DNA of 24,000 nucleotides from Methanocorpusculum sp. UBA424 (GTDB taxonomy: Archaea > Halobacteriota > Methanomicrobia > Methanomicrobiales > Methanocorpusculaceae). Both the position numbers and the translations under genes were made by a program. The notes beneath the pieces are model-generated. The model was given only the letters and a program-made list of their open reading frames with translations, was not told the DNA's origin and did not search any database. Where the stretch lies: the NCBI GenBank assembly GCA_002498375.1, contig DAHC01000002.1:15860-39859 (forward strand). Reading direction: 5' to 3'. Numbering within the stretch: position 1 is the first letter of the stretch; each line of letters begins with the position of its first letter. Below are positions 11,334 through 24,000 of the stretch, piece by piece.

Positions 11334-12469
11334 TGAGAATATCTATCAACCCATTTTTTAACGCGAATCATGATTTAATGAAGATTGGCTACATCCCTAC
11401 ACCCTCATCCCCCCCAAAAAAAAGAAAAAATACCCATTATTCCTTGACGTTTTTTTTATTTACACTCTGTTTTGAATCGTTTTCACCTGATAGATATTAT
11501 AACAAAATGCAGCCAGCATATTTTTCACTCGTACTCTTTGCAGCGTTGTTACCTTCACCAACCCTGCATGAAAGATATTTTTGATCACTGCATAGGGTCT
11601 TTCCCCCTTTGATCTCTTCCTGCTTATTCGCATATTTCTGAGTTTATCTCGTATGCTAATGGGATGTCCCCTCGCTCCCCGTTTCATTGTCGCACTATAT
11701 CCCTTGCATTTCGCTCCCTGATATCCCCGATCCCGATAGACCACTTCTCCTTTTTCTGACAGATCCACCTGACTATCATGAACATTTGCCGTGGTGGTTT
11801 CAATGCGTCGAATAAGATCGTGCGTCGTATCCATGATGGTATGAAGTTTATAGCCATAGTGCATTTTGCCGTTCTTGGACATGATTTTTCCATCTTTATC
11901 CCGTCGTGTTTTTGCCTGCTCTCCTCGCGGCGTGTCTTTCTTACAATGACCGGGTTCAGCATACACAAACGTTGCATCCTGGATCATTCCTTTCTCGATT
12001 ATCAACCCTTTTGATTCTAATTGTCGCTGGAATTCTTCCCAAACTAATGTATCAACGCCTGATTCGGACATACGCTCCCGAAATAACCAGATCGTTGAAT
12101 TGTCGGGTATTTTGTCAGGACACCCAAGGAAATGCCAAAAAGAAAGACGATCATAAATTTCACGTTCAACGGCGAGATCAGACAGATTATACCAGACTTC
12201 CAGAAGCTGAATCTTGAACATAAGTATGACATCGACATTGGGATGACCGCCCTTGCCGGATTTATTTGCATACATGGATTCAAGAAGAGGGCGAAACACA
12301 TCCCAATCAAGTGTTTTTCCAACGTCGGAGAGACGGTCGCCAAGTTTTTCATAACGTTCGTGATAGGCCTGGTTGAGACCAAAGCTGCTGAAAGTCCCCA
12401 TACATACTACTCAACGTACGAAAAGAAAGTACTTTCTGTCGAAAAAAAAAAGGTTGTTAGAAATTCTCA
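11334..12469 (-). mobile_element. IS5-family insertion sequence, apparently intact (1136 bp)
   Basis: The terminal inverted repeats are tgagaatatctatcaacc (11334-11351) and ggttgttagaaattctca (12452-12469), matching at 16 of 18 positions. The trinucleotide GTA flanks both ends (11331-11333 and 12470-12472), a possible 3-bp target duplication. A single DDE transposase ORF lies inside. Confidence 0.8.
11460..12401 (-). CDS. IS5-family DDE transposase
   Basis: 313 aa with an ATG start. N-terminal InsH/DUF772-like region (FRPLLESMY...GGHPNVDVILMFKIQLLEVWYNLSDLAVEREIYDRLSFWHFLG). DDE_Tnp_1 region (IQDATFVYA ... YGYKLHTIMD ... VYRDRGYQG ... RSKGERPYAVIKNIF, i.e. the Y-R-E-K signature). Confidence 0.9.
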   Translation of the reverse strand: MGTFSSFGLNQAYHERYEKLGDRLSDVGKTLDWDVFRPLLESMYANKSGKGGHPNVDVILMFKIQLLEVWYNLSDLAVEREIYDRLSFWHFLGCPDKIPDNSTIWLFRERMSESGVDTLVWEEFQRQLESKGLIIEKGMIQDATFVYAEPGHCKKDTPRGEQAKTRRDKDGKIMSKNGKMHYGYKLHTIMDTTHDLIRRIETTTANVHDSQVDLSEKGEVVYRDRGYQGAKCKGYSATMKRGARGHPISIRDKLRNMRISRKRSKGERPYAVIKNIFHAGLVKVTTLQRVRVKNMLAAFCYNIYQVKTIQNRV

Positions 12470-12492
12470 GTATTGTGTATTTCCGGGTTTGG

Positions 12493-12834
12493 TCAGCGTT
12501 TTATCTGCTGGACCGTGTTCACGACCTTCTCGATCTCGGCAAACTGTACGTCCGCCATGCCATTTTTGGTGATCCCTATCTCCGTTGCGATCAGATGGTG
12601 ATCGGGGGCGAATCCTGCCTCGGCAAGCTTCTTCTTTGCACAGCAATCAGTGCAGCCGTCAAGCACGATCACCTCGTCCACATCTTCGATTTCGTCGGCA
12701 ATCCTATCGGCGCCCTGCTCTGCGCGCACCCAGATATACCCTCCCGGTCTTCTCTGCAGAAGAGCCAGGGCCGCCTGGGTGGTCAGTTTTCCGGTATTCG
12801 AAATACCCGAACAGGTAACTAATGTAATCGTCAT
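12493..12834 (-). CDS. DGC-domain putative metal-binding protein
   Basis: 113 aa. VTCSGISNTGKLT...VIVLDGCTDCCAKKKL is typical of the DGC family often encoded in ars operons. The ATG overlaps the ACR3 stop (ATGA). Confidence 0.75.
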   Translation of the reverse strand: MTITLVTCSGISNTGKLTTQAALALLQRRPGGYIWVRAEQGADRIADEIEDVDEVIVLDGCTDCCAKKKLAEAGFAPDHHLIATEIGITKNGMADVQFAEIEKVVNTVQQIKR

Positions 12835-13898
12835 GAAGAATCACCCGGCGTATTCCCGGGAAATTTGGTTCGCGTCGCGTTCGCAAATTTAACGAGCATG
12901 AGCATCACCGGCACTTCGACGAGCACTCCGACGATCGTCGCGAGAGCGACCGGACTTCCGGTCCCATACAACGCAATGGAAACGGCGACGGATAATTCGA
13001 AGAAGTTCGAAGCGCCGATCATGCCCGCCGGGGCTGCAATACTGTGAGGGAGTTTCAGGAACCATCCCGCGCCGTATGCAATACAGAAGATCAGGATCGT
13101 CTGAATGATCAGCGGTACGGCGATCAGAAGAATGTGCAGCGGATTTGCCAGAATCACACTTCCCTGGAAGGAAAAAATGATCACGAGGGTAAGCAGCAGA
13201 CCGATGATGGTGATGTTGTCGAACTTCGGGACGAATGTATTCGTGAAATACTCCTCCCCTTTTTTCCTGATGAGATACACCCGGGTGGCCACACCGCCGG
13301 CAAGCGGGATCACGACGAACAGAACCACCGAAAGAAACAGGGTTGCCCACGGGATGCTGATCCCGCCGATCCCGAGCAGGAATGCGACGATCGGCACGAA
13401 CGCGACAAGAATGATCAGATCATTGGTCGCGACCTGAACGACCGTGTAGGCGGCGTTTCCTTTCGTCAGATAACTCCATACAAACACCATTGCGGTACAC
13501 GGAGCTGCGCCTAAAAGCACGGCGCCGATCAGATAATCCTGGGCGAGTTCAGGAGGAATGAGGGCGCTGAACACGAAATAGAAAAAGAACCAGGCGATCG
13601 CAAACATCGTGAACGGTTTGATCAGCCAGTTCACGACCCAGGTCAGAACGAGTCCTTTCGGATTTTTTCCGACGTATTTCACGCTCTTGAAATCCACCTT
13701 CAGCATCATCGGGTAGATCATGACCCAGATCAAAACGGCGATCGGGATAGAGACGCTGGCATACTCGAACGTTCCCAGAAACTCCGGAACGAACGGCAGG
13801 AATCTGCTGATCAAAACGCCGATGATCATGCATATTATAACCCAGAGGGTAAGATATTTGCTGAAAAATCCGAGTCCGCCGTTCGTTTTCTGTGCCAT
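12831..13898 (-). CDS. acr3: ACR3-family arsenite efflux transporter
   Basis: 355 aa with about 10 TM helices. The N-terminus LGFFSKYLTLWVIICMIIGVLI and the GAAPCTAMVFVW segment (conserved Cys in TM4) are characteristic of ACR3. Confidence 0.88.
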   Translation of the reverse strand: MAQKTNGGLGFFSKYLTLWVIICMIIGVLISRFLPFVPEFLGTFEYASVSIPIAVLIWVMIYPMMLKVDFKSVKYVGKNPKGLVLTWVVNWLIKPFTMFAIAWFFFYFVFSALIPPELAQDYLIGAVLLGAAPCTAMVFVWSYLTKGNAAYTVVQVATNDLIILVAFVPIVAFLLGIGGISIPWATLFLSVVLFVVIPLAGGVATRVYLIRKKGEEYFTNTFVPKFDNITIIGLLLTLVIIFSFQGSVILANPLHILLIAVPLIIQTILIFCIAYGAGWFLKLPHSIAAPAGMIGASNFFELSVAVSIALYGTGSPVALATIVGVLVEVPVMLMLVKFANATRTKFPGNTPGDSS

Positions 13899-13911
13899 TT
13901 TCTTCAGTTCC

Positions 13912-14643
13912 TTACGTGTTCATCGGGTGAAACGGGCATTCGTCCAGAAGGCATTCCTGATTTCGTCCGGAATACTCGCAGACGATCTTCTCAGGCATGG
14001 TCATATTGATGCCGAGATGCTTTGCGACAAACTCCACCGCGGTCTGCATGGCGATATACGTATCGCGTTTACAGCAGCGTGGTCCGCCGATCGAACCGAT
14101 CTTTATCAGGCATTCACCCGTCAGAAGGTTTCCAAGCGCCCAGTTTTTCTCTGAAAGAGGGTTGGTTTTCAGCGCGATCGAAAGAAAAATGCCCGCACTT
14201 ACTGCAGCCCCGCAGGTCCCGGCAAGTCCGCAAAATCCACCCGGAACCATTTTTCCTCTGTGCTCCATCGAGGTGAGCGCAGTTGGAAGATCCAGATCCC
14301 CGCCGGCATTTTTATACGCGGCGAGAAGAGCTGCACCGGTAAGGATGTGGTGTTCGGGCCCGTGCATATGTACAGCGTCTGAGTCCATGATCTCCGTGGC
14401 GATGGAAAAGGGATCCGTCGATGCAGTATGCAGGCAGACGTATCTGATCACGGCAAATGAGGGGGAGGCATGACATTCATCGCAGACGAAGTGCCCTTTT
14501 GTGCATTTTGCGTTGCTCAAAAAGGTCTTTCCGCAGACTGAGCAGGTCATCTCTTCCTCTTTCTCGCAATATTCCAGCGGAGCTCCGCAGATGAGGCATG
14601 CCGGATTCTGGTCGCTGGTTGTGGCTGGCATTAATGGGTTCAT
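13912..14643 (-). CDS. Cys-rich putative metal-binding protein (zinc-ribbon N-terminus; DUF5714-like by recollection)
   Basis: 243 aa with about 17 Cys, including CLICG...CSVCG, CDEC, GFCG, GTCG, PRCCK and ECLLDECP. The ATG overlaps the arsC stop (ATGA). The family assignment is from memory only. Confidence 0.7.
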   Translation of the reverse strand: MNPLMPATTSDQNPACLICGAPLEYCEKEEEMTCSVCGKTFLSNAKCTKGHFVCDECHASPSFAVIRYVCLHTASTDPFSIATEIMDSDAVHMHGPEHHILTGAALLAAYKNAGGDLDLPTALTSMEHRGKMVPGGFCGLAGTCGAAVSAGIFLSIALKTNPLSEKNWALGNLLTGECLIKIGSIGGPRCCKRDTYIAMQTAVEFVAKHLGINMTMPEKIVCEYSGRNQECLLDECPFHPMNT

Positions 14644-15020
14644 TCCTTTAGTAATGTTCTAATATTATCTTCTATGTGTATTAGTGTCATCCAATACGCC
14701 TCCTCGCCTTTTCCGACCGGGTCGTCGATGTGCCATTCGATCCGCTGTGTTCCGGGAATGACGGGGCAGGCGATCCCGCAGCCCATCGTGACGATGATGT
14801 CGATCTTTGGCAGATCAGAGATCTTTTTCGGCCGATTCGTCGAAAGATCGATCCCGTAGATCTCCTGCATGAGGCGGACGGCTGTCGGATCGACGTTTTC
14901 GCCCGGCTCGCTCCCGGCCGAGTAACAGGTGAACCTGTCGCCGCCGAGATGCCGGCAGAGTGCTTCTGCGATCTGGGATCTGCAGGAGTTTTTGATGCAG
15001 AGAAAGGCGATCCGTTTCAT
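14640..15020 (-). CDS. arsC: Arsenate reductase, LMW-PTPase (thioredoxin-coupled) type
   Basis: 126 aa. The N-terminal CX5R P-loop is FLCIKNSCRSQIAEA, with downstream Cys pair GCGIACP and DP motif WHIDDP. Confidence 0.88.
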   Translation of the reverse strand: MKRIAFLCIKNSCRSQIAEALCRHLGGDRFTCYSAGSEPGENVDPTAVRLMQEIYGIDLSTNRPKKISDLPKIDIIVTMGCGIACPVIPGTQRIEWHIDDPVGKGEEAYWMTLIHIEDNIRTLLKE

Positions 15021-15898
15021 ACGATCACCTGGACGGCAAGGCCCGTCACCACAGCCGCAATAAATATCGTTGCGACAAACACCAGAACGAGCTGTTTTTT
15101 GAATATCGCGGAAAGCATCGTGATCTCGGGAATACTCATACCTGCGCCGCCGATCAAAAGAGCGGCCACGGTCCCCACCCCCATCCCTTTACTCAAGAGA
15201 GCGGCGCTGATCGGGAGGATCGTCTCCGCTCTGATATAGAGCGGGATCCCGATGATCGCGGCGATGGGGATCGCAAACAGATTCTCTGGTCCCGCGACGG
15301 CCAGGATCCAGTCGGCAGGCAGAAATCCGTAGATGAATGCGCCGATCGCGGCTCCAAGCAGAAGGTAGGGGCTCATCTGCCGAAACGTCATCCAGGCAAA
15401 CCGTACGATCCTCTGGAGTTTCGTGCCGCTCTCTTCGGTCATTCCTTCGACGGCGACCGGTTTTACATATTTTTTGAACCCGAGCCGCTCAAGAGTAAGG
15501 CCGATGAGGACGGCAGCCGTGAACATCAGGACCGCATATATGATAGTGATTTTTGGTCCGAAGATGACAAGCATCATCGCGATTATCACCGGGTTCAAAA
15601 GAGGGGAGACGAACAGAAAGGACATGGCGCTCGAAAAGGCCACGCCGGATTTCAGAAATCCGAGCGTTACCGGAATCGTCGAGCAGGAGCAGAACGGCGT
15701 GATCGCTCCAAAAGCGGCGCCGATAACGCTTCCTCTGACCGAGCCGGAATGCCCGAGGACTTTCTGCATCTTCTCTTTAGGGACATAGACATTGAGCGCC
15801 CCGACGATCAGACAGACGACGATGAAAAGCGCCGTAAGTTCCAGAGCTATGATCAGGAAATACTGACCGGCCGCGAGGAGCGTTTCTGCAAAATTCAT
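15017..15898 (-). CDS. ArsP-like / DUF318-family permease
   Basis: 293 aa, polytopic. The GAITPFCSCSTIP motif is typical of the PF03773-type permeases found with ArsR, of which the organoarsenical exporter ArsP is a member. ATGA overlaps occur at both ends. Confidence 0.8.
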   Translation of the reverse strand: MNFAETLLAAGQYFLIIALELTALFIVVCLIVGALNVYVPKEKMQKVLGHSGSVRGSVIGAAFGAITPFCSCSTIPVTLGFLKSGVAFSSAMSFLFVSPLLNPVIIAMMLVIFGPKITIIYAVLMFTAAVLIGLTLERLGFKKYVKPVAVEGMTEESGTKLQRIVRFAWMTFRQMSPYLLLGAAIGAFIYGFLPADWILAVAGPENLFAIPIAAIIGIPLYIRAETILPISAALLSKGMGVGTVAALLIGGAGMSIPEITMLSAIFKKQLVLVFVATIFIAAVVTGLAVQVIV

Positions 15899-16071
15899 TC
15901 AGATTTTCCGGAACAACAGCAGTTTTCTCCGCATTGATCTTTCGATCCGGCTTCTTCATCGCAGCAGGATTTTTCCGGCACGATTTTCACATTGCAGCAG
16001 CACGAGCAGTTTTCTGCGGTGATGGCTTTTTTCAGCTTTCCAAATATCGAGGTCTTTTTTTCTTCGGTCAT
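15895..16071 (-). CDS. Poly-cysteine mini-protein (58 aa from ATG 16071; 61 aa if GTG 16080 is used)
   Basis: M(SIM)TEEKKTSIFGKLKKAITAENCSCCCNVKIVPEKSCCDEEAGSKDQCGENCCCSGKSE has 10 Cys in clusters CSCCC, CC, C and CCC. It fits exactly between arsR and the permease: its stop overlaps the permease ATG (ATGA), and the GTG start would overlap the arsR stop. Confidence 0.6.
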   Translation of the reverse strand: MTEEKKTSIFGKLKKAITAENCSCCCNVKIVPEKSCCDEEAGSKDQCGENCCCSGKSE

Positions 16072-16076
16072 GATAC

Positions 16077-16430
16077 TCACATCTTTTCACAGGGTCGTGT
16101 TTCTCTAAGTCTTTTCAAGGTGTCTTTGTCGGTTTTTGTCATCGGCAGTTCGGCGCAGATCTTTTCCAGGGCAGTGCACAACGCGGGATACTGGGCGAAA
16201 AATTCATCGCTGATTTTGTAGTATGCCCATTGTGCCTGTTTTCTGCTCTGGATGATGCCGGCGTTTTTCAGGATCGCGAGGCTGCGCGAAGCGTTCGGCT
16301 GGGAGAGGGAGAGTGCTGCTTCGATCTCACAGACGCATAATTCATTACCCTGCAGGAGTGCAAGGATTCGAAGTCTGGTCGCATCGCCGCATGCTTTGAA
16401 GATCGTTTCCGGATCACTCATCGCATTCAT
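16077..16430 (-). CDS. arsR: ArsR/SmtB-family metalloregulator
   Basis: A wHTH with FKACGDATRLRILALL and the As(III)-site motif ELCVCEI. The likely start is ATG 16430 (MNAMSDPE) or 16421. The track ORF to 16514 would overlap the upstream gene by 100 nt. Confidence 0.88.
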   Translation of the reverse strand: MNAMSDPETIFKACGDATRLRILALLQGNELCVCEIEAALSLSQPNASRSLAILKNAGIIQSRKQAQWAYYKISDEFFAQYPALCTALEKICAELPMTKTDKDTLKRLRETRPCEKM

Positions 16431-16743
16431 ATCCGGGAATACAGCAGGAGCAGCAGTGGGTTTTTCGTTCGATGAGGTGGTCGGAGACATGCAGGATCTG
16501 TTTGATCTCTTCATCGGTCGGATACCTGCCGGTGATCATGACAAAGTCATTGACAACGACGGCCGGGAGGATTTTCTCGCCGTGCCGTGACATAAGACGG
16601 ACGATGTTTGGGTTGGCATCGCATGTTGCCCGCTCTATCAGAATGCCTTTGGGTTTGAGCCGGTCGATGATCTCAGTGATCCGGATGTACTCGGGATCGG
16701 TCGTGTCCGGGTCTTGTGCTTCGTAAAGACACATTGATGACAT
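16414..16743 (-). CDS. ArsD-like protein lacking the N-terminal Cys triad
   Basis: GILIERATCDANP...LPAVVVNDFVMITGRYPTDEEI aligns with the ArsD core (IERFNLAQQP...LPLLLLDGETVMAGRYPKRAEL). The C-terminal tail is HCCSCCIPGYECDE. Alternative ATG at 16734 (MCLYEAQ...). Confidence 0.7.
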   Translation of the reverse strand: MSSMCLYEAQDPDTTDPEYIRITEIIDRLKPKGILIERATCDANPNIVRLMSRHGEKILPAVVVNDFVMITGRYPTDEEIKQILHVSDHLIERKTHCCSCCIPGYECDE

Positions 16744-16752
16744 ATATTATTA

Positions 16753-16765
16753 TATTCACATATTT
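16753..16765 (-). promoter_or_regulatory. AT-rich promoter box (TATA candidate) for the arsD-like/arsR unit
   Basis: The plus-strand sequence tattcacatattt is 12/13 identical to tatttacatattt at 18579-18591, upstream of the AbrB-like gene. Its centre is about 26 nt from ATG 16734, consistent with a leaderless transcript. Confidence 0.4.
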
Positions 16766-16815
16766 GCATATAATGATTTTCAAAAGGTGCGGGTGAGGGC
16801 ACCCCCAAATCCCGT

Positions 16816-17166
16816 TTACCGCTCCTTCTTCCCGCAGTCGCAGACCGCAGCTTTTTGTTTCGGTGCGGAACTTCCGCAGCAGGAACTTCCCTCGCCGCAG
16901 CAGGCTTCGGTGTCCATGTCCTTTCCCCGGAGTGCGGCGCCGATCATCCCCCACGCACAACCGACCCCGCTTTGAACGATGATAGCCTGGACAGGGCAGT
17001 TGAGAGCGCAGGCTCCGCATTCCATGCAGGCAGAAGGCCGGTCGAGGATCACACGGGTCCGGCCTGCAGTAAAAACTGCATGGGGACAGACCTGCGTGCA
17101 GCGTCTGCAGTTTATACAAAGTGCCGGATCAAAGGAAAGACTCGTTTCGGTGTAGGAATTAAACAT
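16816..17166 (-). CDS. hgcB: Mercury-methylation ferredoxin HgcB (2x[4Fe-4S]) with an extended Cys-rich C-terminal tail
   Basis: There are two CxxCxxCxxxCP motifs (CINCRRCTQVCP, CMECGACALNCP), and it lies immediately downstream of hgcA. ATG 17166 is preceded by GGGGTGATC, complementary to the 16S 3' end. The track start at 17196 is TTG. The tail is EACCGEGSSCCGSS...CDCGKKER. Confidence 0.88.
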   Translation of the reverse strand: MFNSYTETSLSFDPALCINCRRCTQVCPHAVFTAGRTRVILDRPSACMECGACALNCPVQAIIVQSGVGCAWGMIGAALRGKDMDTEACCGEGSSCCGSSAPKQKAAVCDCGKKER

Positions 17167-17170
17167 CAGA

Positions 17171-18235
17171 TCACCCCAGAATTCTGGATACGCCAAGGAT
17201 AATACCGCTTATCACGCCGAGCGCCGCCATTCCCGCCATGACCTTGACATACGAAAAGATCTCCTTCTTGACCCCTGTTCGTGAGGTAAACGGTGTGCAG
17301 CCGGTGAAGTTCAGGGCAAGATACGAGATAACCGGCGTGATGAGAAGGAAGGCCGCAGCGGCTGAAAGGACGCCGGCCCATACCGGCAGGTTCGGATCTG
17401 TGCCAAAAACATACGCGAAGGGGAGCGATACGATCATGCCAAGGATCATCCCTTTGGTCGAAAAGTCCCGTGTCGGGAGAACGGGCAGAAGCAGAGGAAA
17501 AAGCACGGTGCCTGCAAGGACTGCGGATAGTGCGGCAAGCGATGCGACGGGTCCGGCAAGAAACCAAAGTGCCGCGGCGGCTGCAAGAGCCGGAAGCGCC
17601 GCGTGCATGAACTCGACAGGCGTCAAAACGAGCCGGTCCCGCAAAGAGAATTCGACACGCCGCATGGCAGGCGTCGCCGTGTGCGTTTTCAGATACTCCG
17701 GCAGATCGTCTGCACGGACCGGGCCGTACTCGACGATGAACTTCGTCCTCTGCGCCACTTCCTGCCAGGAGACACCGGGCGCTCCAAGCTGGGGAACGAT
17801 GATTGTCCTGTGCGAGACGAGCGAAGCAAGGCCTGAGGATTCTATTCTGCGGACGAGTTCATCCGTTCCAAACGTTCCCTTTCCGGCGGCGCACCAGACG
17901 TTGATCCCCTTCGTGTCCAGAACAAGGATCCATGCATCGATTCCTGCAAGCGCTGAACGGAGGGCATCAAAACTGAGAGAATAGTTTGCCGAGGCAAAAG
18001 CCGGGGATTCTGTATTTGGATCCCCGAGCTGATACAGGCCGGGTTCGACACGGTGCTCTGACCGGCGCCAGCCGAATCTGGCCAGAAGATGGTCGAGCCT
18101 GTCAGAAAAGGTGATGATGCCCGTGGTCGTTTTAATCTCCGGGGATCGGGAGCTTTTTTCAGCGCATCCGCAGCTCTGTCCTCCGGACGTCGATGAGCAG
18201 GAGCAGCAGGAGCCGGATGTTTCGGTTATTTTCAT
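17171..18235 (-). CDS. hgcA: Mercury-methylation corrinoid protein HgcA
   Basis: The diagnostic cap-helix motif N-V-W-C-A-A-G-K is encoded at 17879-17902 (GINVWCAAGKGTFG). A corrinoid-binding-like domain is followed by a C-terminal half with about 5 TM helices. ATG 18235 is preferred over the track GTG at 18250. The N-terminus carries SCCSCSSTSGGQSCGC. Confidence 0.92.
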   Translation of the reverse strand: MKITETSGSCCSCSSTSGGQSCGCAEKSSRSPEIKTTTGIITFSDRLDHLLARFGWRRSEHRVEPGLYQLGDPNTESPAFASANYSLSFDALRSALAGIDAWILVLDTKGINVWCAAGKGTFGTDELVRRIESSGLASLVSHRTIIVPQLGAPGVSWQEVAQRTKFIVEYGPVRADDLPEYLKTHTATPAMRRVEFSLRDRLVLTPVEFMHAALPALAAAAALWFLAGPVASLAALSAVLAGTVLFPLLLPVLPTRDFSTKGMILGMIVSLPFAYVFGTDPNLPVWAGVLSAAAAFLLITPVISYLALNFTGCTPFTSRTGVKKEIFSYVKVMAGMAALGVISGIILGVSRILG

Positions 18236-18246
18236 GAATAGGTCCC

Positions 18247-18543
18247 TCACGACCGGTCCTGTTCGTTTAGGAGCGGGCCGAGAATATCCTTTACCATGCA
18301 GCTCAAATTGTCAGCTTTCATCAGAGCAAGACAGCAGATGCTGCCGTTTTTCTCCCAGCTGATGAGTGCGAGTTTGTCTCCGTTTCGGATGCCGGCTTTT
18401 TCCCGCACGTCTTTTGGCAGGACCATCTGCCCGCGTTCATCGACGCTGAGTACTGCTTCGATCCGGCAGCCCGTTTCACAACTGCACCCGCAGTCTGAAT
18501 CATTTTTTTGTGATGATGGATCTTCGGTATTTTTTTGGGTCAT
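18247..18543 (-). CDS. Cys-rich AbrB/SpoVT-type DNA-binding protein upstream of hgcA
   Basis: From ATG 18543: MTQKNTEDPSSQKNDSDCGCSCETGC, then a SpoVT/AbrB swapped-hairpin motif (VDERGQMVLPKDVREKAGIRNGDKLAL). The stop lies 11 nt before the hgcA ATG. The longer track ORF (to 18639) runs into the promoter region. Confidence 0.75.
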   Translation of the reverse strand: MTQKNTEDPSSQKNDSDCGCSCETGCRIEAVLSVDERGQMVLPKDVREKAGIRNGDKLALISWEKNGSICCLALMKADNLSCMVKDILGPLLNEQDRS

Positions 18544-18571: not shown

Positions 18572-18613
18572 TTCTGACTATTTACATATTTCTGAAAAAT
18601 CAGAATTTTCTGA
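18572..18613 (-). promoter_or_regulatory. Promoter/operator candidate of the AbrB-like-hgcAB unit
   Basis: TTCTGA occurs at 18572, 18590 and 18608 (exact 18-bp phasing), with an inverted TCAGAA at 18600. These interleave with the AT-rich box tatttacatattt (18579-18591), 36 nt upstream of ATG 18543. Confidence 0.4.
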
Positions 18614-18780
18614 ATTGCCGGAGTCTCTCTGTTAAGCAATGTCGGGGTCGGGATCCCCGCCGGCGGTGTCAGGCTGATCGCTTTTGTGCGGGAGGAACGG
18701 GTGTGAAAGAAAGAGGAGGAGCTGTATTCTCCCGATCCAACTCATTGCCTTAATAAACACCGCTCACCCATATTTTGCTA

Positions 18781-20295
18781 ATGATAACTGGTGATCTGAA
18801 GAATAAAATCGACGCGCTCTGGAATATATTCTGGACGGGGGGATTGACCAATCCCCTGGATGTGATCGAACAGATAACCTATCTGATGTTTATCCATGAT
18901 CTGGATGAGATGGATAACATCAAATCGAAGGAGTCGGTGATGCTGAGTGTCCCTTATACGAGTATTTTTGCGGGCGAGATTAAGATTAAGCGGGAGATTA
19001 AGAATGATGAGGAGCCGATTCCTGCAACTCAGCTGAAGTGGTCGGTGTTCCGCGATTTTCCGGCTGCAAAGATGTATGATATCATGCAGCTTGGTGTATT
19101 CCCGTTTATCAAAACATTGCATGCGAATAAGAACAGCGCTTATTCGAAGTATATGGATGACGCGATTTTCAAGGTGCCGACTCCGCAGAAGTTGTCCCAG
19201 ATCGTTGATGCGCTGGATGATATTTTTGCGATGGTGAAATCTGATGCGAAGGATGATACCCGCGGGGATCTGTATGAGTATCTTCTTTCGAAGATTTCAA
19301 CGGCAGGAACGAATGGTCAGTTTCGAACACCGCGTCATATTATCCGGATGATCGTCGAGATGATGGCTCCAAAGCCGGGAGAGGTCATCTGCGATCCGGC
19401 ATGCGGGACGGGCGGGTTTCTGGTGTCTTCGGTGGATTATCTCAAAGAGAAGTATCTGAAGGAGATCTTTTACGATAAGTTGCAGCTTGCGCATTTCAAT
19501 AAGGAAATGTTTACGGGGTTTGATATGGATCGGACGATGCTTCGTATCGGGGCGATGAATATGATGACGCACGGGGTGGAGAATCCAAGAATCGGGTATC
19601 GGGATTCTTTGTCGGATCAGAATCCCGATTTGAATAAGTATTCGCTGATCATGACGAATCCGCCGTTTAAGGGGAGTCTGGATTATGATATCGTTTCTGC
19701 GGATCTTTTGCGTGTTGCGAAGACGAAGAAGACGGAGCTTTTGTTTCTGGCGTTGTTTTTGCGGATGCTGAAGATCGGGGGGCGCTGTGCGTCGATCGTG
19801 CCGGACGGGGTTTTGTTTGGTTCGTCTACGGCGCATAAGGCGGTGCGGCAGGAGATCATTGAGAATAACCGGCTGGAGGCAGTTATTTCGATGCCGTCCG
19901 GGGTGTTTAAGCCGTATGCCGGGGTGTCGACGGCGATCCTGATCTTTACGAAGACGAATCACGGAGGTACGGATAAGGTGTGGTTCTATGATATGGAGGC
20001 GGACGGGTTCAGTCTTGATGATAAGAGGAGTCAGACGAAGGAAAACGATATTCCGGATATCGTTTCCCGGTTCCATGATCTGGCGAAGGAGGAGACACGC
20101 GAACGAACGGAGAAGAGTTTCTTTGTCCCAAAGGCGGAGATCGCGGCGAATGCGTATGATCTTTCGATCAATAAATACAAAAAGGTCGTGTATGAGAGAG
20201 TCGAGTATCAGTCGACGTCGGAGATTTTGTCGGAGCTGAAAGTTCTCGAAGAGGAGATCTCCTACGGGATCTCGGAACTGAAGAGGATGGTGTGA
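18781..20295 (+). CDS. hsdM: Type I restriction-modification system, N6-adenine DNA methyltransferase subunit
   Basis: HsdM N-terminal domain (LWNIFWTGGLTNPLDVIEQITYLMF). SAM motif I (VICDPACGTGGFL) and catalytic motif IV (IMTNPPF). ATG 18781 is preferred over TTG 18775. The TATA-like ttaataaa at 18750-18757 fits a leaderless start. Confidence 0.93.
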   Translation: MITGDLKNKIDALWNIFWTGGLTNPLDVIEQITYLMFIHDLDEMDNIKSKESVMLSVPYTSIFAGEIKIKREIKNDEEPIPATQLKWSVFRDFPAAKMYDIMQLGVFPFIKTLHANKNSAYSKYMDDAIFKVPTPQKLSQIVDALDDIFAMVKSDAKDDTRGDLYEYLLSKISTAGTNGQFRTPRHIIRMIVEMMAPKPGEVICDPACGTGGFLVSSVDYLKEKYLKEIFYDKLQLAHFNKEMFTGFDMDRTMLRIGAMNMMTHGVENPRIGYRDSLSDQNPDLNKYSLIMTNPPFKGSLDYDIVSADLLRVAKTKKTELLFLALFLRMLKIGGRCASIVPDGVLFGSSTAHKAVRQEIIENNRLEAVISMPSGVFKPYAGVSTAILIFTKTNHGGTDKVWFYDMEADGFSLDDKRSQTKENDIPDIVSRFHDLAKEETRERTEKSFFVPKAEIAANAYDLSINKYKKVVYERVEYQSTSEILSELKVLEEEISYGISELKRMV

Positions 20296-20352
20296 TGGTG
20301 GTTTCTGCGTTGACGTTTGGTTCTGCAGTTATGCGTTTTGGCGGTCGAACCG

Positions 20353-20388
20353 ATGTCGGTATAAATGTCGGTATAAATGTCGGTGTAA
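20353..20388 (+). repeat. 12-bp tandem repeat x3 in the hsdM-hsdS linker
   Basis: The units are atgtcggtataa / atgtcggtataa / atgtcggtgtaa. Each unit reads ATG-TCG-GTR-TAA in the hsdS frame. Confidence 0.9.
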
Positions 20389-20406
20389 ATCCGGGGCGGG
20401 TATGTT

Positions 20407-21555
20407 GTGGGGTGTGTTGAGTTGAGGAGAGAGAATTGGAAATATCTCCAGTTTGAAGATGTTTTTGTGGATGTTTCTAAGAGAGGAAAGAAAATTCCTA
20501 AAAGTGATTATTTGTCCGAAGGACGTTTTCCGATTATAGATCAGGGTCAGAAATATGTTGCTGGATATTCAAATTCATCTGAAAAATTGTATTCAGATGT
20601 TCCTGCGTTGATATTTGGAGACCACACACGCATAATAAAATATGTAGATGTACCTTTCTTCTTGGGTGCAGATGGTGTTAAACTGTTAAAATCTAAATTA
20701 TCCGACGTTGATTATAAATTTCTTTATTATGTCCTCTCCCAATTACACATAATTGACACTGGATATAATCGGCATTTCAAGTATCTAAAGGAACAAATCA
20801 TACCTCTCCCGCCCCTTGACGAGCAGAAGCGGATCGCCGACGTGCTCGACAAAGCGTCTGAGCTGATCAAAAAACGCAAAGAGCAGATCCGGCTGATGGA
20901 CGAGCTTGCGAAAAGCCTCTTCATCGAGATGTTCGGCGACCCGGTGGAGAATCCGATGGGGTGGGATGTAAAAAAATTAGGTGATTTGCTTTCTGATTCT
21001 CCTCAAAATGGATTATATAAACCATCTTCAAGCTATGCAAACGGAGATGAAGGTACCCCAATACTGAGAATAGATGCATTTTATGATGGGAAAATTACTG
21101 ATTTATCTCAATTGAAACGGTTACATTGTAATGAAAATGAGATAATACTCTATAGTTTAGAGGAGGGGGATATTGTTATTAATCGCGTAAATAGTATGGA
21201 ATATCTTGGTAAATGTGCTTACATTCCAGTGCTATGTGAGAGTACTGTTTTTGAATCGAATATGATGAGATTGAAAATACAAAGAGATATTCTCCATCCA
21301 CGATATGCTGTATTCTTATTATGTTCCAAATTTATTCAACAACAAATCATGAGTCATGCAAAAAAAGCGGTGAATCAAGCAAGCATTAATCAGACAGATG
21401 TAATGGATTTTAATTTTCATATTCCCCCCCTCTCCCTCCAAAATGAATTCGCCGACCGTATCAACGTGATCGAACAGCAGAAGGCCCTTTTGCAGAACGG
21501 GCTCGCCAAAATGGAGACCGCGTATAAGGCATTGATGCAGGAATACTTCGGGTGA
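20407..21555 (+). CDS. hsdS: Type I restriction-modification system specificity subunit (two TRDs)
   Basis: 382 aa. There are two variable target-recognition domains. They are separated by conserved helices (IPLPPLDEQKRIADVLDKASELIKKRKEQIRLMDELAKSLFIEMFG) and followed by a similar C-terminal helix (PPLSLQNEFADRINVIEQQKALLQN...). There is no ATG near the start; the candidates are GTG 20407 or TTG 20422. Confidence 0.88.
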   Translation: MGCVELRRENWKYLQFEDVFVDVSKRGKKIPKSDYLSEGRFPIIDQGQKYVAGYSNSSEKLYSDVPALIFGDHTRIIKYVDVPFFLGADGVKLLKSKLSDVDYKFLYYVLSQLHIIDTGYNRHFKYLKEQIIPLPPLDEQKRIADVLDKASELIKKRKEQIRLMDELAKSLFIEMFGDPVENPMGWDVKKLGDLLSDSPQNGLYKPSSSYANGDEGTPILRIDAFYDGKITDLSQLKRLHCNENEIILYSLEEGDIVINRVNSMEYLGKCAYIPVLCESTVFESNMMRLKIQRDILHPRYAVFLLCSKFIQQQIMSHAKKAVNQASINQTDVMDFNFHIPPLSLQNEFADRINVIEQQKALLQNGLAKMETAYKALMQEYFG

Positions 21556-22647: not shown

Positions 22648-24000
22648 ATGACCAGGACCAACTTCGACTACCTTTCAGCAGACCCCGGATTCTCCTCCTT
22701 TTCTGACACCGCGATCTCAGCAGAGAAGATCTACTCAATCGACACCGCCGCCTGTGTCGTAAACTGCAGAAGGGCACTTGAATTTGCCGTCAAATGGTTA
22801 TACTCCGTCGATACATCCCTAAAACTCCCCTATCAGGACAACCTTGCCACCCTCATCAACACCGAAGAATTCAAAAAACTCATCAGCTGCGATTTAAGAA
22901 AACGCATCAGCTTCATCCGGGTCCTTGGAAACAACGCCGCCCACGGCTCAGCCCAATTCACCCCCGACCAGGCGGAACTCGCACTCGAAAATCTCTTCAT
23001 CTTCCTTGACTTCATTGCTTACTGTTACAGTCCGGCCTACAAACCGCGGACCTTTGACCGGACGCTCCTCAAAAATCAGGACACGACCCTCCCTCCTCTC
23101 AAAGAAGAAACGCCCCTCGCCCGGCTCATCAATGAAAACAAACCGCTCAAAAATGAACTCACCGCGAGAAGAACACAACGCGAACCCTCCTACGTAACAA
23201 AACCCCTCGAAATATCAGAATACAAAACCCGGAAAATCTACATCGACACCCAGCTCATCGACGCAGGCTGGGAAAAAGGCAAAGACTGGCTCGACGAATA
23301 TGAACTGCCCGGCATGCCGAACAGCGGCGGAGTAGGATACGCCGACTATGTCCTCTTTGGAGACGACGGCAGACCCCTCGCCCTCATCGAAGCGAAAAAG
23401 ACCTGCAAAGACCCCGCAGTCGGACGTCAGCAGGCAAAACTCTACGCCGACCTCCTCGAACAGAAATTCGGCAAACGGCCCGTCATCTTCCTCACCAACG
23501 GCTTTGAAACCCGGATCTGGAACGACACCAAATACCCTGAACGAAAAGTCTCCGGCATCTACGCAAAACGTGACCTCGAAAAAGAGTTTGCCAAACTCGC
23601 ATTCAGAACCTCCCTTGAAAACATACAGATCAACACATCCATCTCCGGCCGCTACTATCAGATGGAGGCCGTAAAAGCTGTTTGCAGGGCATTTGACACG
23701 GAAAACAGACGAAAAGCCCTCCTCGTCATGGCAACCGGCAGCGGAAAAACGCGAACCGTCATCTCCCTCGTCGACATCCTCATCCGGCACGGCTGGGTAA
23801 AAAACGTCCTCTTCCTTGCCGACAGAAACCTCCTTGTCACCCAGGCAAAACGGTCATTCAATGCACTCCTCCCTGACCTCTCACTCACCAACCTCGGTGA
23901 AGAAAAAGACAGCCTTTCCGCACGGGCAGTCTTTTCCACCTACCAGACAATGATCAACGCCATCGACGATGTCAAAGATGAAAACGGCGGCAGACTATTC
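22648..24000 (+). CDS. hsdR: Type I restriction enzyme R subunit, N-terminal 451 codons (3' end outside the window)
   Basis: This ORF is not in the supplied track because it has no stop in the window; I translated it by hand. From ATG 22648: MTRTNFDYLSADPGF...LRKRISFIRVLGNNAAHG (DUF4145-like N-terminus). Next comes a PD-(D/E)xK nuclease core (GYADYVLFGDDGRPLALIEAKK), then helicase motif I (LLVMATGSGKTRT) and LFLADRNLLVTQA. Confidence 0.9.
   Translation, partial: MTRTNFDYLSADPGFSSFSDTAISAEKIYSIDTAACVVNCRRALEFAVKWLYSVDTSLKLPYQDNLATLINTEEFKKLISCDLRKRISFIRVLGNNAAHGSAQFTPDQAELALENLFIFLDFIAYCYSPAYKPRTFDRTLLKNQDTTLPPLKEETPLARLINENKPLKNELTARRTQREPSYVTKPLEISEYKTRKIYIDTQLIDAGWEKGKDWLDEYELPGMPNSGGVGYADYVLFGDDGRPLALIEAKKTCKDPAVGRQQAKLYADLLEQKFGKRPVIFLTNGFETRIWNDTKYPERKVSGIYAKRDLEKEFAKLAFRTSLENIQINTSISGRYYQMEAVKAVCRAFDTENRRKALLVMATGSGKTRTVISLVDILIRHGWVKNVLFLADRNLLVTQAKRSFNALLPDLSLTNLGEEKDSLSARAVFSTYQTMINAIDDVKDENGGRLF

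Follow-up and report, generated by a model that had tools for sequence, protein, structure and literature searches.

The window analysed here, a stretch of 24,000 nucleotides (nt) from the archaeon Methanocorpusculum sp. UBA424 (contig DAHC01000002.1), carries the mercury-methylation genes hgcA and hgcB together with eight genes of arsenic-resistance (ars) type. Open reading frame (ORF) listing and strand reading confirmed 11 co-directional genes on the minus strand from 18543 to 12493, each at the coordinates claimed in the initial annotation of this DNA, with four ATGA overlaps (12831-12834, 14640-14643, 15017-15020 and 15895-15898) and a widest intergenic gap of 72 nt (16744-16815). Profile searches matched HgcA, HgcB, ArsR, PF03773, LMWPc, ACR3 and DGC, and the gene identities proposed there were essentially right; the motifs it quoted (NVWCAAGK, two CxxCxxCxxxCP, ELCVCE, PFCSCS and CIKNSCRS) were all found in the sequence. 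The linkage of hgcAB and the ars genes is real, and the cluster probably consists of two adjacent regulatory units. The features, in 5' to 3' order of the genes, were as follows.

18572..18613, minus strand: hgcC promoter region with candidate HgcC operator, conserved in two related loci (L085 and L088)
18247..18543, minus strand: hgcC, AbrB/SpoVT-type HgcAB-associated protein (NF040962 128.8 bits, cut-off 70; PF04014 30.7 bits)
17171..18235, minus strand: hgcA, corrinoid mercury-methylation protein (NF040863 432 bits, cut-off 275)
16816..17166, minus strand: hgcB, 2x[4Fe-4S] ferredoxin partner with Cys-rich tail (NF040864 104.5 bits, cut-off 99)
16744..16781, minus strand: candidate ars promoter/operator, a conserved block in the 72 nt that separate hgcB from the ArsD-like gene
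16414..16743, minus strand: ArsD-like thioredoxin-fold protein (PF06953 50.7 bits; NF033727 38.9 bits, cut-off 90)
16077..16430, minus strand: arsR, ArsR/SmtB repressor with ELCVCE site (PF01022, HTH_5, 58.6 bits; NF033788 89.9 bits, cut-off 55)
15895..16071, minus strand: 58-amino-acid (aa) poly-Cys peptide (MTEEKKTSIFGK...CSCCC...CC...CCC), matching no known family
15017..15898, minus strand: ArsP-family permease with PFCSCS vicinal-Cys motif (PF03773 206 bits)
14640..15020, minus strand: arsC, arsenate reductase of low-molecular-weight (LMW) phosphatase type (PF01451, LMWPc, 71.4 bits)
13912..14643, minus strand: DUF5714 Cys-rich protein with N-terminal zinc-ribbon-like CxxC pairs and an MbdU-like region (PF18978 225 bits)
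12831..13898, minus strand: ACR3 arsenite efflux permease (TIGR00832 372.7 bits, cut-off 282.8)
12493..12834, minus strand: DGC-domain Cys-rich protein, last gene of the cluster (PF08859 97 bits)

HgcC was recognised by its score above the cut-off and by its position directly upstream of hgcA, with an 11-nt gap. Its N-terminal Cys cluster in the window was DCGCSCETGC, accompanied by a conserved vicinal Cys-Cys pair, and the Cys motifs were kept across about 30 homologues, as CGC...C or CC at the N-terminus and as an invariant CC in G(S/E)(I/V)CC(L/I). This conserved N-terminal cluster and vicinal CC suggest an AbrB-type regulator that senses thiophilic metals, and not an antitoxin; hgcC had no toxin gene beside it. 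The assignment of HgcA followed from the equivalog score, the cap-helix motif NVWCAAGK at 17902-17879 and the predicted C-terminal membrane domain in the hydrophobic half, and its N-terminus carried GSCCSCS...CGC. The hgcA start was preceded by a Shine-Dalgarno GAGG, unlike the ATG of the ArsD-like gene at 16743, and the dN/dS of hgcA was 0.15-0.28. The nearest named HgcA relatives were from M. parvum and other Methanocorpusculum species, the 90%-identity HgcA cluster took in M. parvum and Methanocorpusculum sp. GPch4, and an identical HgcA was present on metagenome contigs with the identical cluster. HgcB scored above its cut-off with two CxxCxxCxxxCP motifs, and its tail contained two CC pairs (EACCGEGSSCCG) and CDCG, the C-terminal end not being CC.

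On the ars side, the ArsD-like Pfam match began at profile position 21, without the N-terminal Cys12/13/18 site. In an alignment of five orthologues the C-terminal C-x-CC-x5-C (..HCCSCCIPGYECDE) was conserved and the N-terminal Cys was not, and TIGR00412 (MTH895/ArsE) was matched weakly. The earlier arsD-like label was thus borne out by PF06953 as to fold, whereas membership of the ArsD metallochaperones was not supported by the NF033727 score, the missing Cys triad or the gene content of the window, which has no ArsA gene; judged by sequence, the product is ArsD-like in fold only. The overlapping arsR gene (17 nt shared) encodes a member of the ArsR/SmtB family by its NF033788 score and ELCVCE site, for which a response to As(III) is predicted; ELCVCE holds two of the three R773 cysteines. 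The poly-Cys peptide had no Pfam or NCBIfam match, was 75-91% identical in four species and was invariant in its N-terminal 21 aa. As its orthologues start at the ATG equivalent to 16071 (MTEEKKTS..., 57-58 aa), the GTGA overlap at 16077-16080 that had been proposed as a possible start is probably not used.

The permease scored well under the cut-offs for SO_0444 (104 vs 300) and SaoE (99 vs 325) and belongs to neither family; its PFCSCS may be the equivalent of the Campylobacter jejuni ArsP Cys pair. PDB sequence searches gave no meaningful solved relatives for the permease or the DUF5714 protein, and the latter reached 161 bits against NF045648 (MbdU; cut-off 600). In ArsC, the P-loop CIKNSCRS and the GCGIACP Cys pair were present. 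The arsC label held in that the best-matching solved structures were arsenate reductases (3t38, E 3.5e-21, then 1jl3, 2l17 and 1y1l) and that the top 15 of 17 PDB matches belonged to the arsenate reductases or the LMW-phosphatase family, with arsenate reductase or ArsC as the given name in 14 cases; it fell short in that the TIGR02691 score of 73 lay below the equivalog cut-off of 174.3. ACR3 was above its equivalog cut-off. The unit thus resembles classical ars operons (arsRDABC of R773; arsR-arsC-acr3 of archaea and Gram-positive bacteria) in its ELCVC-site ArsR, LMW-phosphatase-type ArsC and ACR3, and C. jejuni ArsP in its PF03773 permease with a CxC motif. It differs from the classical operons in lacking ArsA and ArsB, in an 'ArsD' without Cys12/13/18, in the extra Cys-rich genes and in an apparently leaderless promoter. 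No arsM was found in the window.

The DNA between hgcB and the ArsD-like gene contained a candidate promoter, composed of a BRE-like (transcription factor B recognition element) GAAAATCA at 16781-16774 and a TATA box TTATATGC at 16773-16766, that is, -30 to -23 from the ATG at 16743, with the purine-rich BRE-like GAAAA directly ahead of TTATATGC. A palindrome of 32 nt (16746-16777, 81% complementary) overlapped the TATA region, and the candidate ArsR operator reads ATCATTATATGCAAATATGTGAATATAATAAT. The block GAAAATC-ATTATATGCAAATATGTGAATATAAT-AATAT-ATG was invariant in three species, in contrast to the remaining intergenic sequence and the coding DNA on either side, which diverged. It occurred once per ars operon in all six Methanocorpusculum loci and was absent from 80 other, diverse hgcA loci; these were the best-scoring 80 of at least 600 matches, not a random sample, and came to 1.18 Mb in all. 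Since no Shine-Dalgarno sequence preceded the ATG at 16743, a leaderless ars transcript is predicted. Given established archaeal promoter architecture and the palindromic nature of ArsR/SmtB operators, the block may be read as an archaeal leaderless promoter with a repressor site spanning the TATA box and the start.

A different motif was found upstream of hgcC. An inverted repeat, TCAGAA-AA-TTCTGA, lay at 18613-18600 with extra TCAGAA hexamers at 18595-18590 and 18577-18572 and a TATA-like AAATATGTAAATA at 18591-18579, so that the layout of the candidate HgcC operator is TCAGAAAATTCTGA(N4)TCAGAA. Allowing at most two mismatches, a TCAGAAnnTTCTGA-like box was located 60-135 nt ahead of hgcC in 24 of 32 loci, compared with 5 of 589 random control segments taken from the same loci. 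In archaeal and bacterial loci alike, the TCAGAA-N2-TTCTGA or repeated TTCTGA box adjoined a TATAAATA element upstream of hgcC; the box-positive loci included L003, L006, L010, L011, L014-L016, L021, L057, L062, L085, L088, L090 and L091 and, outside the archaea, Actinomycetota and Syntrophales. The papers searched, including the searched text of PMC10349881, gave no description of the box, which we propose as a candidate operator of HgcC. An ArsR operator common to both units of the window was also considered and rejected, because the best counterpart of a 15-mer of the ars palindrome ahead of hgcC (18579-18593) differed from it at 3 positions and the conserved hgcC box is a different motif.

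The ars genes and hgcC thus each have a conserved element of their own, and in relatives hgcB and the ars genes stand further apart, with a Sel1 gene between them in L088 and a 183-nt gap in L086. For these reasons a single 11-gene operon is unlikely and the cluster probably comprises two regulatory units. The description of hgcAB as fused to, and heading, one 11-gene unit was therefore overstated, a conserved promoter-like block lying between hgcB and the ars genes. Joint control of hgcAB by ArsR and the AbrB-like protein, HgcC, was not indicated either, with the candidate ArsR operator downstream of hgcAB in the window.

Close relatives, which lie outside the 80-locus set, were collected by exact-protein look-ups, and the linkage of hgc and ars genes was found in five further Methanocorpusculum genomes: L083, L086/87, L088, L089 and L092, the last being the cultured M. 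parvum. Loci that show the range of arrangements in the genus were as follows.

L083, same species as the window, flanks 98-100% identical: Sel1-hgcA-hgcB-ArsD-like-arsR-peptide-ArsP-ArsC-DUF5714-ACR3-DGC-DUF555...
L086/87, Methanocorpusculum sp.: order as in L083 minus DUF5714, then arsR(-)-ArsP-Trx3-DGC-DGC
L088: hgcC-hgcA-hgcB-Sel1-ArsD-like-arsR-peptide-ArsP-ArsC-ACR3
L092, cultured M. parvum: hsdS-hsdM / hgcC-hgcA-hgcB-ArsD-like-arsR-peptide-ArsP-ArsC-ACR3
L085: hgcCAB without ars genes, many copies of an insertion sequence (IS) around
L093, M. labreanum Z (CP000559.1): neither unit at the syntenic site; reverse transcriptase (RT), RNase T and toxin-antitoxin (TA) genes abut DUF555

The DUF5714 gene was present in L083 and missing from L086, L088 and M. 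parvum. In M. labreanum Z (L093 1-8463) the syntenic DUF555-PfkB-Dph-DUF2070-UvrC was kept with no hgc or ars genes upstream of it, and the variable region was filled by a 1084-aa reverse-transcriptase-domain protein, RNase T and a HepT/nucleotidyltransferase pair. Because the pairing is kept in the relatives and both units are missing together at the M. labreanum Z syntenic site, the hgc and ars units appear from these comparisons to act as one accessory block in a variable region.

The Methanocorpusculum HgcA proteins had two kinds of N-terminus. Type 1 (MKITETSGSCCSCS...) occurred in the window, M. parvum, L085 and L088, where hgcC always precedes hgcA; type 2 (MTEEN(T/N)T...), without the GSCCSCS motif, occurred in L083, L086, L089 and others, at loci without hgcC. 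Upstream of type-2 hgcA was a second copy of the ars promoter and palindrome. Remnants of the ArsD-like and arsR genes (arsD', arsR') came next, and then the initial ~20 codons of the gene for the poly-Cys peptide, which are fused in frame to hgcA and are the source of its N-terminus. These decayed ars duplicates fused to hgcA were located as follows.

L083: 8891-9003
L086: 8801-9003
L087: 947-1150
L089: 8722-9003

The simplest origin of the type-2 alleles would be a tandem duplication of the segment from hgcA to the 5' end of the peptide gene in an L088-like ancestor, after which the first hgc copy was lost and the arsD and arsR duplicates decayed; a Sel1 remnant still follows hgcB in L089. 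Type-2 hgcA was intact, with a dN/dS of 0.16-0.20 that indicates purifying selection. Since it lies behind an ars-type promoter/operator and is so preserved, its placement argues that these strains tolerate or favour joint expression of hgcAB and the arsenic regulon.

When the window (12469-18178) was aligned with L083 (9058-14767), identity was 99-100% from 12469 to ~14800, covering the 3' half of the ars operon, and fell to 87-95% in the 5' half of hgcA, with no homology upstream of 18178. By this comparison the hgc end is a recombination mosaic with a breakpoint inside the N-terminal region of hgcA. No clear donor of the divergent 5' segment was found among the sampled genomes. HgcA types 1 and 2 formed no clean clades and gave no direction of transfer.

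The surroundings of the block bear on the age of its arrival. The flanking housekeeping genes (DUF555, PfkB, diphthamide synthase, DUF2070 and UvrC) were archaeal in profile searches, and the DUF2070 protein grouped with its M. labreanum Z counterpart; together with the HgcA relatives, this places the window in a Methanocorpusculum chromosome. In third-position GC content (GC3) and synonymous codon use, hgcCAB and the ars genes were like the housekeeping genes, and the outliers of foreign appearance were the IS transposase (GC 0.44) and hsdS (GC 0.39). The earlier view that hgcAB is not a recent import thus agrees with its codon composition and is qualified by the absence of the block from the M. 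labreanum Z syntenic site and by the mosaic hgc end. Between the DGC gene and DUF555 lay the following element.

11335-12468: IS with DDE_Tnp_1 and DUF772 transposase, 1134 bp, GC 0.44, 5-bp target duplication

The insertion site of this element was empty in L083, and in L085, where the ars module beside hgcCAB is missing, at least six IS copies of ~92% identity were counted. On the other side, type I restriction-modification (R-M) genes hsdM and hsdS (18775-21555, plus strand) diverge from hgcC; hsdM had an extreme GC skew (0.26-0.35; third-position G 0.48 vs C 0.15), and the hsdS-hsdM/hgcC junction recurred in M. parvum and not in L083, L086 or L088. A 191-aa ORF without Pfam match (23215-23790, minus strand) lay in a region with GC skew of -0.24 to -0.30. 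Rfam and tRNA scans of the whole window found nothing, and no riboswitch or RNA element was evident.

Such traffic would allow the adjacency to be without function, two accessory modules simply sharing a variable island next to DUF555. The IS and R-M genes flanking the block, the RT and TA genes in its place in M. labreanum Z, the mosaic hgc end, the IS-rich L085 with hgcCAB and no ars genes, and the lack of ars genes near most hgcA loci all speak for this. Against it, the pairing recurs in other gene orders in Methanoregulaceae, Syntrophobacterales, Syntrophaceae and Phycisphaerales, arsC stands right after hgcB in four Methanoregula/Methanomicrobiales loci, hgcAB has captured an ars promoter in alleles under purifying selection, and in Pseudodesulfovibrio mercurii ND132 hgcAB and ars operons are co-induced by arsenic though unlinked. 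On this balance we regard a functionless adjacency as unlikely.

The recurrence was measured with hidden Markov models built from the module proteins and searched against the hgcA flanks of the 80 best-scoring loci. At least one non-regulator module gene was found in 13 of these 80, and at least two in five of them, from Methanoregulaceae, Syntrophobacterales, Syntrophales, Syntrophaceae and Phycisphaerales. ArsR-family genes were near 20 of the 80 best-scoring hgcA loci, HgcC in 27 and an ArsP-family gene in four. The chance expectation, a rough estimate from 1-2 copies per ~3-Mb genome, was less than one match per family in 1.18 Mb. The window, six related Methanocorpusculum loci and the 13 of the best-scoring 80 thus belong to the class of co-localised hgcAB-ars loci, and the adjacency is not unique to this strain, the outcome that the initial annotation had named as refuting it, being instead conserved in the genus and recurrent in other lineages. 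In Methanoregula, hgcCAB stood inside clusters with ArsP, Trx, DGC and ACR3 genes.

L091, Methanoregula: arsR(-) / Cupin-ArsP-x-Trx3-DGC-DGC-DUF166-hgcC-hgcA-hgcB-GCAxxG-x-ACR3-MtrA-CDF
L090, Methanoregula: ArsP...Trx3-DGC-FeThRedB-DGC-DUF2703-DUF166-GCAxxG(x2)-ACR3-LMWPc(x2)-MtrA-hgcC-hgcA

In four Methanoregula/Methanomicrobiales genomes (L003, L006, L009 and L010), an LMW-phosphatase-type arsC directly followed hgcB on the same strand, ~290-345 nt past the end of hgcA, and no other ars genes were detected nearby. A free-standing gene for an MtrA-like corrinoid-binding methyltransferase subunit was also observed beside ACR3 or hgcC in Methanoregula hgcAB clusters (L090 7954-8637; L091 11292-11990; L016 ~420 nt upstream of hgcC) and not in the window; its product might be a methyl-donor component for HgcA.

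The initial annotation regarded an arrangement with hgcAB at the head of a full ars module as not established, which is wrong in general. McDaniel et al. (2020, mSystems, PMC7438021, Fig. 6) described hgcAB flanked by acr3, arsC, arsM and arsR, and in 112 genomes they found hgcA preceded by a putative regulator. The window resembles these hgcAB-ars loci (PMC7438021; Gionfriddo et al. 2020) in having acr3, arsC and arsR within a few ORFs and a regulator directly upstream of hgcA. It differs from those of PMC7438021 in its archaeal host, in the lack of arsM, in the conserved promoter and palindrome defined here and in an ars side that is a complete eight-gene composite with ArsP-family, ArsD-like, poly-Cys, DUF5714 and DGC genes. 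A literature search for Methanocorpusculum hgcAB with arsenic found no paper.

A close parallel is ND132, where hgcAB is under the control of an ArsR-like regulator (Gionfriddo et al., bioRxiv 10.1101/2022.10.17.512643; AEM 2023) and arsenic co-induces hgcAB with the operons arsR-acr3-arsC and arsR-arsP-arsE-DGC (bioRxiv 10.1101/2022.10.17.512643). The gene sets of the window match these two, Operon B and Operon C, and a DGC gene closes the ND132 ArsR5-ArsP-ArsE-DGC operon as it closes the window cluster, DGC genes also occurring in the Methanoregula hgc clusters. The ND132 operons are dispersed, whereas in the window B and C are merged and adjoin hgcAB; ND132 has an ArsR/SahR-like regulator directly upstream of hgcAB, whereas in the window HgcC precedes hgcAB, and arsR and its candidate operator lie downstream.

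For archaea, an AbrB/PrlF-like gene upstream has been proposed as the hgcAB regulator, and supplementary tables list ACR3 beside archaeal hgcAB (PMC10349881, 2023). That upstream gene is the HgcC of NCBIfam (NF040962). As in most Methanomicrobia, the window has the AbrB/SpoVT-domain gene directly upstream of hgcA. PMC10349881 contrasts TA-like regulation in archaea with ArsR regulation in bacteria; the window holds both elements in one locus, and, differently from the cases described there, sister strains of Methanocorpusculum have swapped hgcC for a copy of the ars promoter. To judge from the sequences of these alleles, archaeal hgcAB can apparently also be wired to an ArsR-type operator.

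An alternative raised at the outset would join the 11 genes in one operon, with HgcA as the methylating enzyme for As(III) or another soft metalloid and the ArsP-like permease and ACR3 as exporters of what it makes. It draws on the tight co-directional packing, the lack of a terminator-like site in the 72-nt gap, the presence of an ArsP-family permease without arsM in the window, and the type-2 relatives with hgcA behind an ars promoter. Methanogen extracts, moreover, are reportedly able to methylate arsenic in a methylcobalamin-dependent manner (McBride and Wolfe 1971). The ND132 hgcAB deletion strain was also more sensitive to As(V). On the other side, ND132 cultures yielded neither mono- nor dimethylarsenicals (bioRxiv 10.1101/2022.10.17.512643). 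In addition, the ars genes have their conserved independent promoter/operator, a Sel1 gene intervenes in L088, and an ArsP-family gene was near just four of the 80 best-scoring hgcA loci. ArsP is a stand-alone resistance determinant for methylarsenite, MAs(III), also in non-methylating organisms (PMC11653729), and so an ArsP without arsM is not anomalous. It does not follow from the missing arsM that HgcA supplies the methylated substrate; nothing found here supports arsenic methylation by HgcA, some evidence from other work speaks against it, and we consider the one-operon explanation very improbable.

A second possibility is that the module serves mercury, the CxC permease exporting methylmercury (MeHg) or Hg-thiol complexes produced by HgcAB and the Cys-rich proteins trafficking Hg(II). 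MeHg has no known exporter, and its export is tightly coupled to methylation (cited in PMC7438021). PF03773 includes exporters linked to Cu/Zn and organometals, such as SO_0444 and SaoE; hgcCAB of Methanoregula is flanked by ArsP, Trx3 and DGC genes, and DUF5714 resembles the metal-binding MbdU. The unit nevertheless contains bona fide arsenic genes, namely an ACR3 above its equivalog cut-off, an arsenate-reductase-type ArsC and a CVC-type ArsR, few hgcA loci have ArsP-family genes nearby, and no experiment links PF03773 with Hg. A dedicated mercury module therefore seems equally hard to credit.

The explanation we prefer, at a probability of about 65%, is that two adjacent units are present, that their linkage is selected rather than accidental and that HgcAB is part of the response to thiophilic metals and metalloids. 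Selection is indicated by the linkage being kept across the genus, by the joint absence at the M. labreanum Z syntenic site, by the embedding in Methanoregula and by the capture of the ars promoter. The first unit would be the canonical archaeal hgcC-hgcA-hgcB module with its own promoter, whose TCAGAA-N2-TTCTGA box would serve as HgcC operator. The second would be an eight-gene composite operon for resistance to arsenic and soft metal(loid)s, with its own leaderless BRE/TATA promoter, amounting to the arsR-acr3-arsC and arsR-arsP-arsE-DGC operons of ND132 merged into one. Its 32-nt palindrome would be the operator of the CVC-type ArsR encoded by its second gene and would be released by As(III). 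From family membership, ArsC would reduce arsenate and ACR3 export arsenite, the ArsP-family permease would export a second thiophilic species, for example methylarsenite from neighbouring organisms, and the ArsD-like protein, poly-Cys peptide, DUF5714 and DGC proteins would buffer or hand over the metal(loid).

Several points weigh against this explanation. No module gene was near 67 of the 80 best-scoring hgcA loci, the enrichment estimate assumes typical copy numbers and is uncorrected for phylogeny, and L085 retains hgcCAB without an adjoining ars module. The sigma-70/intrinsic-terminator scan, which is uninformative for archaea, found no hairpin-plus-T-run in the 72-nt gap, and since no terminator-like site was seen there, transcription could run on from hgcB into the ars genes. 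Geometry and conservation are the basis of the promoter and operator assignments, and family membership is that of the putative roles of the permease, DUF5714, DGC and peptide. The candidate ArsR operator lies downstream of hgcAB, and arsenic control of hgcAB is not indicated in the window.

A stronger version, in which HgcAB is a working member of an ArsR-controlled soft-metal(loid) regulon and the ArsP-family CxC permease exports what HgcA makes by corrinoid-dependent methyl transfer, either MAs(III) from As(III)-thiolates or MeHg from Hg(II), appears doubtful, though slightly less so than the one-operon and mercury-module explanations. If it were true, mercury methylation would be one face of an ancient methylate-and-export route of detoxification or warfare, and the type-2 alleles, with hgcA under a captured ars promoter, would be a revealing natural experiment.

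An association of hgcAB with arsenic genes is already on record in the literature, and so no new principle is claimed. What is added is the detail of candidate ArsR and HgcC operators, a merged ars operon of B plus C type, hgcCAB inside ArsP/DGC/ACR3 clusters across Methanomicrobiales and an ars promoter captured by hgcA in sister strains. These results qualify the published view of archaeal hgcAB as being under an AbrB-like gene instead of ArsR. They also offer a compact and tractable archaeal case, with both units adjacent in the cultured M. parvum, each with a sharply defined candidate promoter/operator, and with close strains that differ naturally in whether hgcC or a captured ars promoter precedes hgcAB. 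Most likely, HgcAB takes part in the way the cell responds to thiophilic metal(loid)s, and the role and regulation of hgcAB bear on the prediction of methylmercury production in the environment.

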